64,000 bases of DNA. It comes from Escherichia coli. GTDB lineage: Bacteria; Pseudomonadota; Gammaproteobacteria; Enterobacterales; Enterobacteriaceae. Shown one piece after another: positions 1,884-7,051 of the stretch; the first letter of the stretch is position 1; each line of letters starts with the position of its first letter. The translations under genes were made by a program, and so were the position numbers. The DNA is taken from assembly GCF_050920415.1 (NCBI RefSeq), contig NZ_CP169309.1. One strand, written 5' to 3'. The notes under the pieces were generated by a model. The model did no database searches and was not told the origin of the DNA. It saw only the letters and a list, made by a program, of their open reading frames with translations.

Positions 1884-1920
1884 GCCAACCTTAAGAACTT
1901 AAGGTTGGCTTAATTTTGCT
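1884..1920 (+). terminator. Intrinsic terminator downstream of adiC
   Basis: Perfect inverted repeat gccaaccttaag / cttaaggttggc followed by a T-rich tract (ttaattttgcttt), about 30 nt after the adiC stop. Confidence 0.5.
1898..1914 (+). promoter_or_regulatory. Candidate BasR (PmrA) box upstream of eptA
   Basis: CTTAAG-GTTGG-CTTAAT direct repeat (hexamer, 5 bp, hexamer) about 50 bp upstream of the eptA start; resembles the PmrA/BasR consensus YTTAAK-N5-YTTAAK. Confidence 0.5.
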
Positions 1921-1960: not shown

Positions 1961-3604
1961 ATGTTGAAGCGCCTACTAAAAAGACCCTCTTTGAATTTAC
2001 TCGCCTGGCTATTGCTGGCCGCTTTTTATATCGCTATCTGCCTGAATATTGCCTTTTTTAAACAGGTATTGCAGGCGTTGCCGCTGGACTCGCTGCATAA
2101 CGTACTTGTTTTCTTGTCGATGCCGGTCGTCGCTTTCAGCGTGATTAATATTGTCCTGACACTAAGCTCTTTCTTATGGCTTAATCGACCGCTGGCCTGC
2201 CTGTTTATTCTGGTTGGCGCGGCTGCACAATATTTCATAATGACTTACGGCATCGTCATCGACCGCTCGATGATTGCCAATATTATTGATACCACCCCAG
2301 CAGAAAGTTATGCGCTGATGACACCGCAAATGTTATTAACGCTGGGACTCAGCGGCGTACTTGCTGCGCTAATTGCCTGCTGGATTAAAATCAAACCTGC
2401 CACCTCGCATCTGCGCAGTGTTCTTTTCCGTGGTGCCAATATTCTGGTTTCTGTACTGCTGATTTTGCTGGTCGCCGCACTGTTTTATAAAGACTACGCC
2501 TCGTTGTTCCGCAACAACAAAGAGCTGGTGAAGTCCTTAAGCCCCTCTAACAGCATTGTTGCCAGCTGGTCATGGTACTCCCATCAGCGACTAGCAAATC
2601 TGCCACTGGTGCGAATTGGTGAAGACGCGCACCGCAACCCGTTAATGCAGAACGAGAAACGTAAAAATTTGACCATCCTGATTGTCGGCGAAACCTCGCG
2701 GGCGGAGAACTTCTCCCTCAACGGCTACCCGCGTGAAACGAACCCGCGGCTGGCGAAAGATAACGTGGTCTATTTCCCCAATACTGCGTCTTGCGGCACG
2801 GCAACGGCAGTTTCAGTACCGTGCATGTTCTCGGATATGCCGCGTGAGCATTACAAAGAAGAACTGGCACAGCACCAGGAAGGCGTGCTGGATATCATTC
2901 AGCGAGCGGGCATCAACGTGCTGTGGAATGACAACGATGGTGGCTGCAAAGGTGCCTGCGATCGCGTGCCTCACCAGAACGTCACTGCGCTGAACCTGCC
3001 TGGTCAGTGTATCAACGGCGAATGTTATGACGAAGTGCTTTTCCACGGGCTGGAAGAGTACATCACTAACCTGCAAGGTGATGGCGTAATTGTCTTACAC
3101 ACCATCGGCAGTCACGGCCCGACCTATTACAATCGCTATCCGCCACAGTTCAGGAAATTTACCCCTACCTGCGACACCAACGAGATCCAGACCTGTACCC
3201 AAGAGCAACTGGTAAACACTTACGACAATACGCTGGTCTACGTCGACTATATTGTTGATAAAGCAATTAATCTACTGAAAGAACATCAGGATAAATTTAC
3301 CACCAGCCTGGTTTATCTTTCTGACCACGGTGAATCGTTAGGTGAAAATGGCATCTATCTGCACGGTTTGCCTTATGCCATCGCCCCGGATAGCCAAAAA
3401 CAGGTGCCGATGCTGCTGTGGCTGTCTGAGGATTATCAAAAACGGTATCAGGTTGACCAAAGTTGCCTACAGAAACAGGCGCAAACGCAACACTATTCAC
3501 AAGACAATTTATTCTCCACGCTATTGGGATTAACTGGCGTTGAGACGAAGTATTACCAGGCTGCGGATGATATTCTGCAAACTTGCAGGAGAGTGAGTGA
3601 ATGA
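1961..3604 (+). CDS. eptA: Lipid A phosphoethanolamine transferase
   Basis: Track ORF 1916..3604; start placed at the internal ATG giving [14 protein letters not shown] (547 aa), matching EptA/PmrC as recalled; stop overlaps the basR start (ATGA). Confidence 0.88.
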
Positions 3605-4269
3605 AAATTCTGATTGTTGAAGACGATACGCTGTTATTGCAGGGATTGATTCTGGCGGCGCAAACCGAAGGCTACGCGTGCGATGGCGTGACAACCGCGC
3701 GGATGGCGGAACAAAGCCTTGAGGCAGGTCATTACAGCCTGGTGGTACTGGATTTAGGGTTACCCGACGAAGATGGGCTGCATTTTCTCGCCCGAATCCG
3801 GCAGAAAAAATACACCCTGCCGGTACTGATCCTCACCGCTCGCGATACGCTGACTGACAAAATCGCCGGACTGGATGTCGGGGCTGACGATTATCTGGTG
3901 AAGCCTTTTGCGCTGGAAGAGTTACACGCCCGTATCCGCGCCCTGCTACGACGCCATAATAATCAGGGCGAAAGTGAGTTGATTGTTGGCAATCTGACGC
4001 TGAATATGGGTCGCCGTCAGGTATGGATGGACGGTGAAGAGTTGATTCTGACGCCCAAAGAATATGCTCTGCTATCACGGTTAATGCTTAAAGCAGGTAG
4101 TCCGGTGCATCGGGAAATTCTCTACAACGACATCTATAACTGGGACAATGAACCCTCGACCAACACCCTGGAAGTGCATATCCACAATCTGCGCGACAAA
4201 GTGGGCAAAGCCCGTATCCGCACCGTGCGCGGCTTTGGCTATATGCTGGTCGCGAATGAGGAAAACTAA
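3601..4269 (+). CDS. basR: Two-component response regulator BasR (PmrA), OmpR family
   Basis: 222 aa; N-terminal receiver domain ([29 protein letters not shown]) and C-terminal winged helix; operon with eptA and basS. Confidence 0.93.
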
Positions 4270-4278
4270 TTGAATCTG

Positions 4279-5370
4279 ATGCGTTTTCTGCGCCGACCAA
4301 TATCGCTGCGCCAACGGCTGATATTGACCATTGGGGCCATTTTGTTGGTGTTTGAGTTGATCAGCGTCTTCTGGCTATGGCATGAAAGTACCGAGCAGAT
4401 TCAGCTGTTTGAGCAGGCGCTACGCGACAATCGTAACAACGATCGCCACATCATGCGTGAGATCCGCGAGGCGGTCGCCAGCCTGATTGTCCCTGGCGTC
4501 TTTATGGTCAGCCTGACGCTATTTATCTGCTATCAGGCGGTACGCCGCATCACCCGCCCGCTGGCGGAGCTGCAAAAAGAGCTGGAAGCGCGCACCGCCG
4601 ACAACTTAACGCCCATTGCCATTCACAGCGCCACCCTCGAAATCGAAGCGGTGGTTTCAGCGTTAAACGATCTGGTCAGTCGCCTGACCAACACGCTGGA
4701 TAACGAAAGGTTGTTTACCGCTGACGTCGCGCACGAACTGCGAACGCCACTGGCGGGGGTGCGTTTGCATCTGGAACTGCTGGCGAAAACGCATCACATT
4801 GATGTAGCACCGTTAGTGGCACGACTTGATCAGATGATGGAGAGTGTCTCCCAGCTACTGCAACTGGCGCGTGCCGGACAGTCATTTTCTTCCGGTAATT
4901 ATCAACATGTAAAACTGCTGGAAGATGTCATTCTCCCCTCGTATGACGAACTCAGTACCATGCTCGACCAGCGCCAGCAAACCCTGCTATTGCCAGAGAG
5001 CGCCGCCGACATCATCGTTCAGGGTGATGCAACCCTGCTGCGGATGTTATTGCGAAACCTGGTAGAAAATGCCCATCGTTACAGCCCGCAAGGCAGCAAC
5101 ATTATGATTAAGCTGCAAGACGATGGCGGAGCGGTCATGGCCGTTGAAGATGAAGGACCGGGTATTGATGAGAGTAAATGCGGGGAGTTGAGTAAAGCGT
5201 TTGTACGAATGGACAGCCGTTATGGCGGGATTGGTCTGGGGTTAAGTATTGTCAGCCGCATTACACAGTTGCATCACGGGCAGTTTTTCCTGCAAAACCG
5301 GCAAGAGACTTCCGGCACGCGGGCCTGGGTACGGCTGAAGAAAGATCAGTACGTGGCAAACCAGATATAA
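4279..5370 (+). CDS. basS: Sensor histidine kinase BasS (PmrB)
   Basis: 363 aa from the first ATG (track ORF begins at an upstream TTG); H-box ADVAHELRTPLAG and ATPase motifs; follows basR. Confidence 0.9.
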   Translation: MRFLRRPISLRQRLILTIGAILLVFELISVFWLWHESTEQIQLFEQALRDNRNNDRHIMREIREAVASLIVPGVFMVSLTLFICYQAVRRITRPLAELQKELEARTADNLTPIAIHSATLEIEAVVSALNDLVSRLTNTLDNERLFTADVAHELRTPLAGVRLHLELLAKTHHIDVAPLVARLDQMMESVSQLLQLARAGQSFSSGNYQHVKLLEDVILPSYDELSTMLDQRQQTLLLPESAADIIVQGDATLLRMLLRNLVENAHRYSPQGSNIMIKLQDDGGAVMAVEDEGPGIDESKCGELSKAFVRMDSRYGGIGLGLSIVSRITQLHHGQFFLQNRQETSGTRAWVRLKKDQYVANQI

Positions 5371-5435
5371 AGAAAGCTGCTGACCACCAGCACGCTGAAC
5401 ACGGTAGTTAAACTTTCATAAACACGGTTTTTCAT
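5346..5435 (-). CDS. pmrR: Small membrane protein PmrR (29 aa), convergent with and overlapping the 3' end of basS
   Basis: Minus-strand ORF atgaaaaaccgtgtttatgaaagtttaactaccgtg...tggtttgccacgtactga translates to MKNRVYESLTTVFSVLVVSSFLYIWFATY; below the 60-aa cutoff of the ORF track; its 3' end overlaps the last codons of basS. Confidence 0.75.
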   Translation of the reverse strand: MKNRVYESLTTVFSVLVVSSFLYIWFATY

Positions 5436-5439
5436 TGCA

Positions 5440-5465
5440 CTCTCCTCCGTTAACCTGGAGGAGAG
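5440..5465. terminator. Hairpin between basS/pmrR and proP (possible terminator for the eptA-basRS transcript)
   Basis: Inverted repeat ctctcctcc-N8-ggaggagag; no strong T-tract follows, so the function is uncertain. Confidence 0.3.
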
Positions 5466-5479
5466 TATGCGTGTCAGAG

Positions 5480-5496
5480 ATTAAGTGAACCTTAAG
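5480..5496 (-). promoter_or_regulatory. Candidate BasR (PmrA) box for pmrR
   Basis: Minus-strand reading CTTAAG-GTTCA-CTTAAT, about 45-60 nt upstream of the pmrR start codon. Confidence 0.5.
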
Positions 5497-5548
5497 AGTC
5501 AATTGTTGGCCTGATGAGACAGCATCCCATCAGGCAATTCGTTTCAGC

Positions 5549-7051
5549 TTACTCATCAATTCGCGGATGCTGCTGCACCAGGCGGGTACGTTTCTCCTGC
5601 AAATCGGCAATCTCGTGGTCAATATCATCGATTTTTTGCTCGATATTATCGTAATGCTCGACGAGAATTTCCTTCGCTTCCTGTATATCTGACGCCGCCG
5701 GTGTCGCACCTTTCAACGGACGATTCGCCGTCTCTTTCATGGTTACGCCGGTGATTAAACCAACCACCGCCACTACCATCAGGTAATAGGCAGGCATCAT
5801 CAGATTCTGCGAGCTTTCGACCAGCCAGGCCGCCAACGTTGGCGTCAGACCGGCAACCAGCACCGAAATATTAAATGCCGCCGCCAGCGCGCTGTAACGG
5901 ATATGCGTCGGGAACATCGCTGGCAAGGTAGAAGCCATAACGCCCGTAAAGCAGTTAAGGATCACCGCCAGCATCAGTAACCCGGCAAAAATCAGGCCGA
6001 TGACGTTACTGTTAATCAGAATAAACGCCGGGATCGCCAACACAAACAGTGCAACACTACCAAGTAGCACAAACGGACGACGGCCAAAACGGTCACTCAG
6101 CAAGCCCATCACCGGCTGGACAAACAGCATACCGATCATAATGGCGATAATAATCAGCACCCCGTGGTCTTCGGAGTAATGCAGGTTATGCGACAAATAA
6201 CTCGGCATATAGGTCAGCAACATGTAGTAAGTCACGTTGGTGGCAATTACCAGACCAATACATGTCAACAGGCTGCGCCAGTATTTAGTGGCAATCTCTT
6301 TAAACGAGACTTTCGGGCCATCCTGCAAACCTTCGCGGTCGCCCTGTTCCAGTTTATCAACATGCTGCTGGAACGCCGGAGTTTCTTCCAGCGCATGGCG
6401 CAGGTAAAGCCCGATAATCCCTAACGGCAGAGCAATAAAGAACGGAATACGCCAGCCCCAGTCGAGGAAGTTCGCTTCGCCGACAATGGTCGAAATTAAC
6501 ACCACCACGCCCGCACCCAGCACAAACCCGGCAATAGAACCGAAGTCCAGCCAGCTGCCCATAAAGCCACGTTTACGGTCAGGGGAGTATTCCGCAACAA
6601 ATATCGACGCCCCGGTATATTCACCGCCGACCGAGAAACCTTGTGCCATCTTACAGATCAACAGCAGAATCGGTGCCCAAATACCAATCGTGTCGTAGGA
6701 CGGTATTAAGCCAATACAGAACGTACTGATCGACATAATCACAATAGTGATAGCGAGGATCTTCTGGCGACCATATTTATCGCCCAACATACCAAAGAAG
6801 AGTCCGCCAAGCGGTCGAATCAGAAAGGGAACGGAGAAAGTGGCAAGTGCAGCAACCATCTGCACGCTGGGGTCAGCCCCCGGGAAAAAAACTTTACCTA
6901 ATGCGTAAGCAACAAAACCATAAACACCAAAATCGAACCATTCCATTGCATTACCCAGTGATGCTGCGGTAATGGCTTTACGCAGTTTACCGTCATCAAT
7001 AATAGTGACATCACGAAGGGTAATCGGTTTTACTTTTTTCCTTTTCAGCAT
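5549..7051 (-). CDS. proP: Proline/glycine betaine:H+ symporter ProP (MFS osmosensor)
   Basis: Track ORF 5549..7084; start placed at MLKRKKVKPITLRD (500 aa); C-terminal coiled-coil tail (DIQEAKEILVEHYDNIEQKIDDIDHEIADLQEKRTRL) typical of ProP. Confidence 0.92.
   Translation of the reverse strand: MLKRKKVKPITLRDVTIIDDGKLRKAITAASLGNAMEWFDFGVYGFVAYALGKVFFPGADPSVQMVAALATFSVPFLIRPLGGLFFGMLGDKYGRQKILAITIVIMSISTFCIGLIPSYDTIGIWAPILLLICKMAQGFSVGGEYTGASIFVAEYSPDRKRGFMGSWLDFGSIAGFVLGAGVVVLISTIVGEANFLDWGWRIPFFIALPLGIIGLYLRHALEETPAFQQHVDKLEQGDREGLQDGPKVSFKEIATKYWRSLLTCIGLVIATNVTYYMLLTYMPSYLSHNLHYSEDHGVLIIIAIMIGMLFVQPVMGLLSDRFGRRPFVLLGSVALFVLAIPAFILINSNVIGLIFAGLLMLAVILNCFTGVMASTLPAMFPTHIRYSALAAAFNISVLVAGLTPTLAAWLVESSQNLMMPAYYLMVVAVVGLITGVTMKETANRPLKGATPAASDIQEAKEILVEHYDNIEQKIDDIDHEIADLQEKRTRLVQQHPRIDE

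Follow-up and report, generated by a model that had tools for sequence, protein, structure and literature searches.

Results

A 29-codon gene lies convergent with basS

We analysed a 64-kb stretch of Escherichia coli DNA (the window), in which a sequence-only reading had pointed to a very small gene on the minus strand, facing the 3' end of basS. The features around that gene, with positions in the window and the basis of each, are as follows.

1898..1914 (+): second PmrA box, CTTAAGGTTGGCTTAAT, directly upstream of eptA, in the eptA-basRS promoter
3601..4269 (+): basR/pmrA, encoding the response regulator that binds the box as activator (ORF list, RefSeq)
4270..5370 (+): basS/pmrB, sensor kinase gene, convergent with pmrR, its last 25 nt overlapping (ORF list, RefSeq)
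5339..5504 (-): match to Rfam RF02052, STnc630 (cmscan, 181.6 bits against a gathering threshold of 55; model positions 1-166 of 166)
5346..5435 (-): pmrR coding sequence, ATG at 5435, 29 codons plus TGA at 5348..5346 (ORF list, sequence)
5439..5466 (no strand assigned): perfect 10-bp inverted repeat, ACTCTCCTCC / GGAGGAGAGT, with an 8-nt loop (sequence, folding, covariation)
5440..5448 (-): Shine-Dalgarno sequence GGAGGAGAG, 4 nt before the pmrR ATG (sequence)
5464..5469 (-): putative -10 hexamer CATACT, 10 nt after the box (motif conservation, likeness to the eptA promoter)
5480..5496 (-): PmrA/BasR box CTTAAGGTTCACTTAAT, that is CTTAAG-GTTCA-CTTAAT, two directly repeated hexamers 5 nt apart
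5509..5535 (no strand assigned): REP-like palindrome GCCTGATGGGATGCTGTCTCATCAGGC, between the proP stop (5549) and the PmrA box (sequence)

The 90-nt minus-strand reading frame that had been described, with its peptide and one membrane helix, is found exactly at 5346..5435 (-). Its translation, MKNRVYESLTTVFSVLVVSSFLYIWFATY, is 29 aa long, and a hydrophobic stretch of 19 residues (L9-A27) suggests a single-helix membrane peptide. The overlap with the final basS codons, also part of that description, amounts to 25 nt, the two coding sequences (4270..5370 on the plus strand, 5346..5435 on the minus strand) meeting tail to tail. The name pmrR, which had been given to the frame from its letters, was confirmed as follows. 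First, the peptide matches the NCBIfam PmrR equivalog model NF033224 at 74.2 bits against a cutoff of 30, with residues 1-29 aligned to positions 1-29 of the 29-position profile. Second, a 501-base query (window positions 5200-5700) found its match in 5,408 of the 5,426 complete genomes of E. coli, and each of the ten records listed carries "LpxT activity modulator PmrR" at the matching place; one genome, 100% identical over the 501 bases, has the RefSeq coding sequence pmrR WP_000797657.1 at the same position, with eptA, basR and pmrB on one flank and proP on the other. Third, the counterpart in K-12 MG1655 is b4703, "small regulatory membrane protein PmrR". The coding sequence, Shine-Dalgarno sequence, hairpin and PmrA box are identical between K-12 and the window, as is the amino-acid sequence of PmrR. 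Nothing of substance separates the window from K-12 pmrR: a single SNP lies in the pmrR promoter spacer, and most of the differences between the end of proP and the box fall in and around the REP-like palindrome, which is probably the 3' stem-loop of proP.

A length of 29 codons is by itself not significant, since 5.5 kb hold about 80 ORFs that reach 20 aa or more. The pmrR frame rises above chance because it has a Shine-Dalgarno sequence, matches the NCBIfam model, keeps box, ORF and spacing across genera, and is under purifying selection. We are nearly certain that this is pmrR of E. coli, transcribed from a BasR/PmrA-activated promoter of its own. This is a known, named and experimentally studied gene, and our scan adds nothing new on the gene itself; the residual novelty lies in a conserved hairpin that pairs the putative -10 region with the Shine-Dalgarno sequence and in divergent orthologs that may be unannotated.

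The proposed anatomy of the pmrR promoter resembles that of eptA

The direct repeat that the earlier reading had placed about 45-60 nt upstream of the gene is indeed present, as CTTAAG-GTTCA-CTTAAT at 5496..5480 (-), 45-61 nt from the A of the ATG, with 44 nt from the end of the box to the ATG. It matches the YTTAAK-N5-YTTAAK direct-repeat consensus exactly. When the 64-kb window was searched for CTTAAK-N5-CTTAAK with at most one mismatch, each site being reported on both strands, only two sites were found: the one at pmrR (5496..5480, -) and one at eptA (1898..1914, +). These give 4 strand-hits where 0.52 were expected, a number that none of 100 shuffles reached. The eptA-basRS promoter also has the same spacing of box, -10 and ATG as pmrR.

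An alignment of 53 orthologous loci shows a common order of elements at pmrR. Downstream of the box come 10-11 variable nt and then nAnACT (A2 in at least 90%, T6 invariant), after which there are about 7 nt, frequently an A, the loop and, ahead of the ATG, GAGGA; GAGG hardly varies at the Shine-Dalgarno position. Exactly 10 nt separate the box from [C/G]AnCAT (A2 in 60/63, T6 in 62/63) at the eptA promoters of these loci, and the eptA ATG lies 45-47 nt after the box. Because nAnACT is conserved in the pmrR loci and the eptA promoters share this plan, we read CATACT (5469..5464) as the probable pmrR -10, albeit a weak one. PmrA-dependent transcription would then start at about 5457-5455 and give a leader of about 20 nt. 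A scan for generic sigma-70 promoters was negative at pmrR, which we do not count against the assignment because the promoter is activator-dependent and has no -35. As a start codon, we rejected an upstream in-frame ATG that would give a 42-aa ORF in two Escherichia genomes (L002 and L005); it stands 5 nt beyond the box, ahead of the putative transcription start.

A published set of pmrB clones in BL21 also bears on this promoter, as their colistin MIC varied with the downstream end of the cloned region (PMC8004244). The MIC was 0.5 for the clone ending at +86 (primer beginning CAGGTTAAC), 4 for that ending at +103 (primer beginning ACGCGCATACT) and 16 for that ending at +126, whose primer begins exactly at CTTAAGG, the box (PMC8004244). 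The authors ascribed the differences to the pmrB 3' UTR and only speculated on pmrR (PMC8004244). Once the primers are placed on the window, the +86 clone is seen to be without the -10, the +103 clone to have the -10 but to be without the box, and the +126 clone to reach the box. We infer that the three endpoints track the -10 and the box and, in effect, map the pmrR promoter.

The module is conserved across genera and its ORF is under purifying selection

To follow the locus beyond E. coli, we scanned genome contigs in a search anchored on BasS that did not presuppose pmrR, covering 80 Enterobacterales loci; Salmonella contributed none of the 80, and the Salmonella comparison was made through the Rfam STnc630 consensus and secondary citations. 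A PmrA box with 0-1 mismatch lies opposite basS in 55 of the 80 loci, followed 41-46 nt later by a start codon and an ORF of 28-33 aa that ends at or near the basS stop; in these loci, box, -10-like hexamer, Shine-Dalgarno sequence and ORF stand at fixed spacing. In all 55, BasS shares at least 60% identity with the query. The genera represented are Escherichia, Citrobacter, Klebsiella, Raoultella, Kluyvera, Kosakonia, Phytobacter, Pseudocitrobacter, Trabulsiella, Yokenella and Pluralibacter, together with several isolates labelled Enterobacter, Pantoea or Erwinia. The module was absent from 8 other Enterobacteriaceae-like loci among the 80 (Pseudescherichia, Superficieibacter and others) and from all 17 loci whose BasS is at most 58% identical (Pectobacterium, Rahnella, Rouxiella, Ewingella, Chimaeribacter and others).

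The orthologous peptides have diverged far, with identities down to 14-38% (mostly 21-38%), while F21 and W25 never vary and [TS][YF] is kept at the C-terminus. Per-position entropy among the orthologs is highest at codon position 3, lower at position 1 and lowest at position 2, and the median pairwise dN/dS is 0.135 in the 29-aa group and 0.287 in the 30-aa group. This codon periodicity, together with dN/dS values of 0.14-0.29, indicates purifying selection on the ORF. The NCBIfam PmrR model fails to detect the orthologs at this position in Klebsiella, Raoultella, Kluyvera, Kosakonia, Phytobacter and others, and such divergent orthologs may go unannotated for this reason. An example of the Klebsiella type reads MQKINFREYLAVATALVIIVAFFHQWVLTF.

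The overlap between the basS and pmrR coding sequences ranges from -8 (none) to 57 nt across genera, and many genera have no overlap. By the sequence comparison, what is conserved is the convergent neighbourhood with basS, not the overlap of coding sequences.

A conserved hairpin joins the putative -10 region to the Shine-Dalgarno sequence

The left arm of the 10-bp inverted repeat (5466..5457) comprises the end of the -10 and the discriminator, and the right arm (5448..5439) comprises the Shine-Dalgarno sequence. The minus-strand RNA folds at -19.9 kcal/mol (z = -4.7), and the plus strand is about equally stable. Across the 53 loci, the helix is paired in 82.8% of cells against 76.1% in column shuffles, of which 0 of 500 were as high; its covariation score is 0.250 against 0.138 in shuffles, again with 0 of 500 as high; and slid controls were 35-50% paired. 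Compensatory changes are seen, one pair, for example, being A-U in 17, C-G in 17, G-C in 6 and G-U in 6. The same helix lies within the consensus structure of Rfam STnc630.

We considered wobble asymmetry as a means of telling which strand the helix serves, and rejected it, as the inner and outer pairs are split. The inner pairs (35 G.T against 8 A.C) favour the pmrR-sense strand and the outer pairs (41 A.C against 0 G.T) favour the basS-sense strand; the outer asymmetry is probably due to A residues in the left arm that are fixed by the -10. Alternatively, the hairpin may belong to the opposite strand and form the 3' stem-loop of the eptA-basRS mRNA.

Should CATACT indeed be the -10, transcripts from the PmrA-dependent promoter would begin past the 5' arm, and the helix would form only in read-through RNA or in the 3' RNA of basS. 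We tentatively suggest, as a possibility that we hold with low confidence, that the hairpin insulates pmrR translation: PmrA-dependent transcripts, starting in the loop, would lack the 5' arm and be translated, whereas read-through transcripts would fold and hide the Shine-Dalgarno sequence. Read-through would come from the upstream gene, which is proP here and other genes elsewhere. Insulation of this kind, if true, would confine PmrR synthesis to the times when BasR fires the promoter. At many eptA promoters outside Escherichia, the -10 (CAGCAT) is complementary to the start-codon region (ATGCTG), and this complementarity and the pmrR hairpin hint at a shared design.

A precedent may be found in IS10, where fold-back inhibition was reportedly described by Davis, Simons and Kleckner in 1985. 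The sequence upstream of the native start is said to be complementary to the ribosome-binding site, such that only transcripts starting further upstream occlude the Shine-Dalgarno sequence. By analogy, the pmrR hairpin is a candidate for the same kind of control, although it could instead serve the 3' end of basS.

Published experiments on PmrR

The anatomy, family membership, conservation and purifying selection of pmrR come from our own analysis, and its PmrA dependence, translation, membrane location and link to LpxT have been reported in the literature. In Salmonella, according to second-hand accounts, Kato et al. in 2012 reportedly found binding by BasR/PmrA, mapped the start site and showed inhibition of LpxT by PmrR. 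For E. coli, the claim of the sequence-only reading that BasR drives pmrR has support from a box-deletion phenotype (PMC8129183) and from co-induction with the regulon (PMC13405929). In derivatives of W3110 with constitutive PmrA, deletion of the pmrR PmrA box alone abolishes polymyxin B resistance and restores deoxycholate resistance, and the polymyxin effect is reversed by deletion of lpxT or by pmrR in trans (PMC8129183). The overlap between pmrR and pmrB is drawn in the same paper (PMC8129183). In Fe(III)-adapted E. coli B, pmrR rises along with eptA, arnABC, ugd and basR (PMC13405929). When the region upstream of E. coli pmrR was placed in a plasmid reporter, low Mg2+ elicited no response (PMC11429745).

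Evidence for the protein comes from Ribo-RET, in which PmrR is among 17 small proteins induced by Mg2+ limitation, and from western blots that detect PmrR-6xHis in the membrane fraction (PMC11429745). The growth defect of a ΔpmrR strain is complemented by wild-type pmrR and not by a version with ATG changed to TAA, and overexpression of PmrR in unstressed cells is harmful (PMC11429745). The low-Mg2+ growth phenotypes of both ΔpmrR and overexpression persist without lpxT (PMC11429745).

Discussion

Convergence with basS and possible interference

The sequence-only reading had named transcriptional interference with basS as a potential effect of this layout. Transcription from the pmrR promoter might damp basS by polymerase collision or through cutting of the sense/antisense duplex by RNase III; with BasR activating both units, damping would place the kinase under negative feedback. 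We think this unlikely. The layout is convergent, and we find no convincing intrinsic terminator after pmrR: the one terminator-like hairpin, at 5392..5378 (-), was rejected, as it lies inside the pmrR ORF and such hairpins occur at chance level (1 found against 0.5-1.4 expected). An overlap of the two transcripts has been reported from RNA-seq, from which ExcludonFinder lists pmrR-basS as a convergent excludon (PMC12288877), and the convergent position beside basS is kept in 55 loci. This synteny, however, could be no more than co-inheritance of a regulon module. Moreover, induction of arnT by PmrA stays 50-fold after deletion of the pmrR box, so that PmrA signalling to arnT is unimpaired (PMC8129183), and the two units both carry PmrA boxes and are co-induced (PMC13405929), not mutually exclusive.

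A model for PmrR and its target

We favour a model in which PmrR acts within the lipid A pathway. Phosphorylated BasR would bind the direct repeat at 5496..5480, which would stand in for a -35 element 10 nt upstream of the weak CATACT, and would recruit RNA polymerase to start at about 5456, as judged from the position of the hexamer, on a leader of about 20 nt with a strong Shine-Dalgarno sequence. The 29-residue PmrR would then insert into the inner membrane as a single helix and inhibit LpxT, which phosphorylates position 1 of lipid A using undecaprenyl pyrophosphate. EptA, whose gene stands at the far end of this locus and answers to the same regulator, would in turn place phosphoethanolamine on this position. 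With phosphoethanolamine at position 1, the negative charge of the surface would fall, polymyxin resistance would rise and deoxycholate resistance would drop.

In E. coli, the support for PmrR acting on LpxT is genetic (PMC8129183), and the lpxT-independent growth phenotypes (PMC11429745) indicate that LpxT may not be its sole target. Could PmrR act mainly through another partner? The low-Mg2+ growth defects persist in ΔlpxT (PMC11429745), and a complex of LpxT and PmrR that affects EptA has been proposed (PMC8129183). Against this, deletion of lpxT in a PmrA-constitutive strain completely suppresses the polymyxin phenotype that comes from deleting the pmrR promoter (PMC8129183). We consider it quite improbable that a partner other than LpxT is the main one in E. 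coli.

STnc630 is the pmrR promoter and its mRNA

The same DNA is covered from end to end by the Rfam family STnc630. Its entry, RF02052, is filed as a non-coding enterobacterial (candidate) sRNA, whereas its consensus, which holds the PmrA box, the hairpin, the Shine-Dalgarno sequence and the complete pmrR reading frame, describes a promoter and a small-protein mRNA. With the whole pmrR ORF inside the model and under purifying selection, the family does not fit a non-coding class; the STnc630 'sRNA' is the pmrR promoter plus its mRNA. We found no mention of STnc630 in the literature searched. That the main product is nevertheless a non-coding antisense RNA on the 3' end of basS, with the ORF incidental, is highly implausible: the stretch 5339..5504 (-) matches the family at 181.6 bits, the pmrR transcript runs antisense to the basS 3' end, and the pair appears in a list of convergent excludons (PMC12288877), but the ORF shows purifying selection and codon periodicity, a strong Shine-Dalgarno sequence is retained in the orthologous loci, complementarity to the basS coding sequence is not conserved (overlap of -8 to 57 nt), the model takes in the non-transcribed PmrA box and hence does not have the boundaries of a mapped RNA, and, in results that largely refute this reading, ribosomes read the ORF and complementation needs its start codon (PMC11429745).

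PmrR among small membrane proteins

The gene in the window is alike in its position convergent with basS/pmrB, its PmrA box and its leader to pmrR of Salmonella enterica and E. coli K-12 (b4703). At the level of the protein, PmrR resembles MgrB, which exerts feedback on PhoQ, and MgtS, which protects MgtA: all three are single-helix proteins of fewer than 50 aa that are induced by the same signalling network, and each binds a larger membrane protein (PMC11429745). Unlike these two, PmrR has as its target an LPS-modifying enzyme and not a sensor kinase or a transporter, and its gene lies tail to tail with the kinase gene of its own regulator.

That a 29-codon gene missed by ORF tracks could be picked out by a reader using sequence alone shows that such genes are recoverable in this way. 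For the bacteria that carry it, PmrR ties the BasSR/PmrAB regulon to the choice made at position 1 of lipid A, between phosphorylation and phosphoethanolamine, and it is this choice that sets the susceptibility of enteric bacteria to polymyxin and bile salts.

Published pmrB deletions and the pmrR promoter

Deletions in pmrB's "3'-downstream region" with endpoints at +86, +103 and +126 have been reported to give colistin MICs of 0.5, 4 and 16, respectively (PMC8004244). Placing the primers of that study on the window, we find that these endpoints, counted from the basS stop, correspond to 5456, 5473 and 5496. The pmrR -10 is absent at the +86 endpoint (MIC 0.5), the -10 alone is present at +103 (MIC 4), and both the -10 and the PmrA box are present at +126 (MIC 16). 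The colistin effect of these deletions is probably one of PmrR expression, and not of pmrB 3'-UTR function.

The same region matches an Rfam family:

5339..5504, minus strand: match to RF02052 "STnc630", spanning the PmrA box and the full pmrR CDS

Rfam files RF02052 under non-coding enterobacterial sRNA; the family amounts to the promoter of pmrR with its PmrA box, together with the entire pmrR coding sequence.

The window carries a second PmrA box:

1887..1914, plus strand: eptA promoter, PmrA box with an extra upstream half-site

Here the sequence reads CTTAAG-AA-CTTAAG-GTTGG-CTTAAT. Box, 10 nt and -10 hexamer are spaced identically at eptA and pmrR, both in the window and at the eptA promoters of loci L002-L081 from our BasS-anchored scan. 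Many genera other than Escherichia have an eptA start-codon region (ATGCTG) complementary to the -10 (CAGCAT), and this complementarity yields stable hairpins.

A conserved hairpin at the pmrR start

An inverted repeat also lies at the pmrR promoter, as seen in the sequence and in alignment A1, which holds 53 loci carrying the box and a pmrR-like ORF:

5439..5466, either strand: perfect 10-bp inverted repeat

It pairs the pmrR SD with the inferred -10/discriminator region, and in A1 the helix is kept across Enterobacteriaceae with compensatory changes. PmrA-initiated pmrR mRNA should lack this hairpin; in read-through RNA it may mask the SD, or it may form a stem-loop at the 3' end of basS.

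An in-frame ATG further upstream lengthens the ORF in some genomes of Escherichia:

4205..4077 of loci L002 and L005, minus strand: 42-aa extended pmrR ORF

This ATG sits in the spacer between box and -10 (ctctgATGtgc), and its use is unlikely because it is 5' of the inferred transcription start.

PmrR-like ORFs and their surroundings

Syntenic 30-aa PmrR-like ORFs (for example, MQKLTFREYLAVTCAFVIVVAFFHQWVLTF) lie on the minus strand directly downstream of basS at L008, L011, L013, L016, L020, L021, L045 and about 40 more loci, in Klebsiella, Raoultella, Kluyvera, Kosakonia, Phytobacter, Pseudocitrobacter and other genera. Every one comes with a PmrA box, and F21 and W25 are invariant among PmrR-like ORFs. 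On the NCBIfam PmrR model, the 30-aa ORFs received no score or a sub-cutoff score, so these predicted orthologs may have been left unannotated.

Beyond the box lies a repeat:

5509..5535, between the PmrA box and the proP stop: REP-like palindrome GCCTGATGGGATGCTGTCTCATCAGGC

Most differences between the window and K-12 over 5330-5560 fall in or around this palindrome, in the stretch bounded by the box and the end of proP. Only 1 of 5,409 E. coli records has at least 99% identity to a 501-base query (5200-5700).

By eye, the gene convergent with basS/pmrR at L017, L025, L039 and L062 has a UvrB-like C-terminus (…EEAAQLRDRLHQLR…).

At these four loci, which represent several genera, the convergent gene downstream of basS is not proP; therefore, the chromosomal context of the eptA-basRS(-pmrR) module varies.
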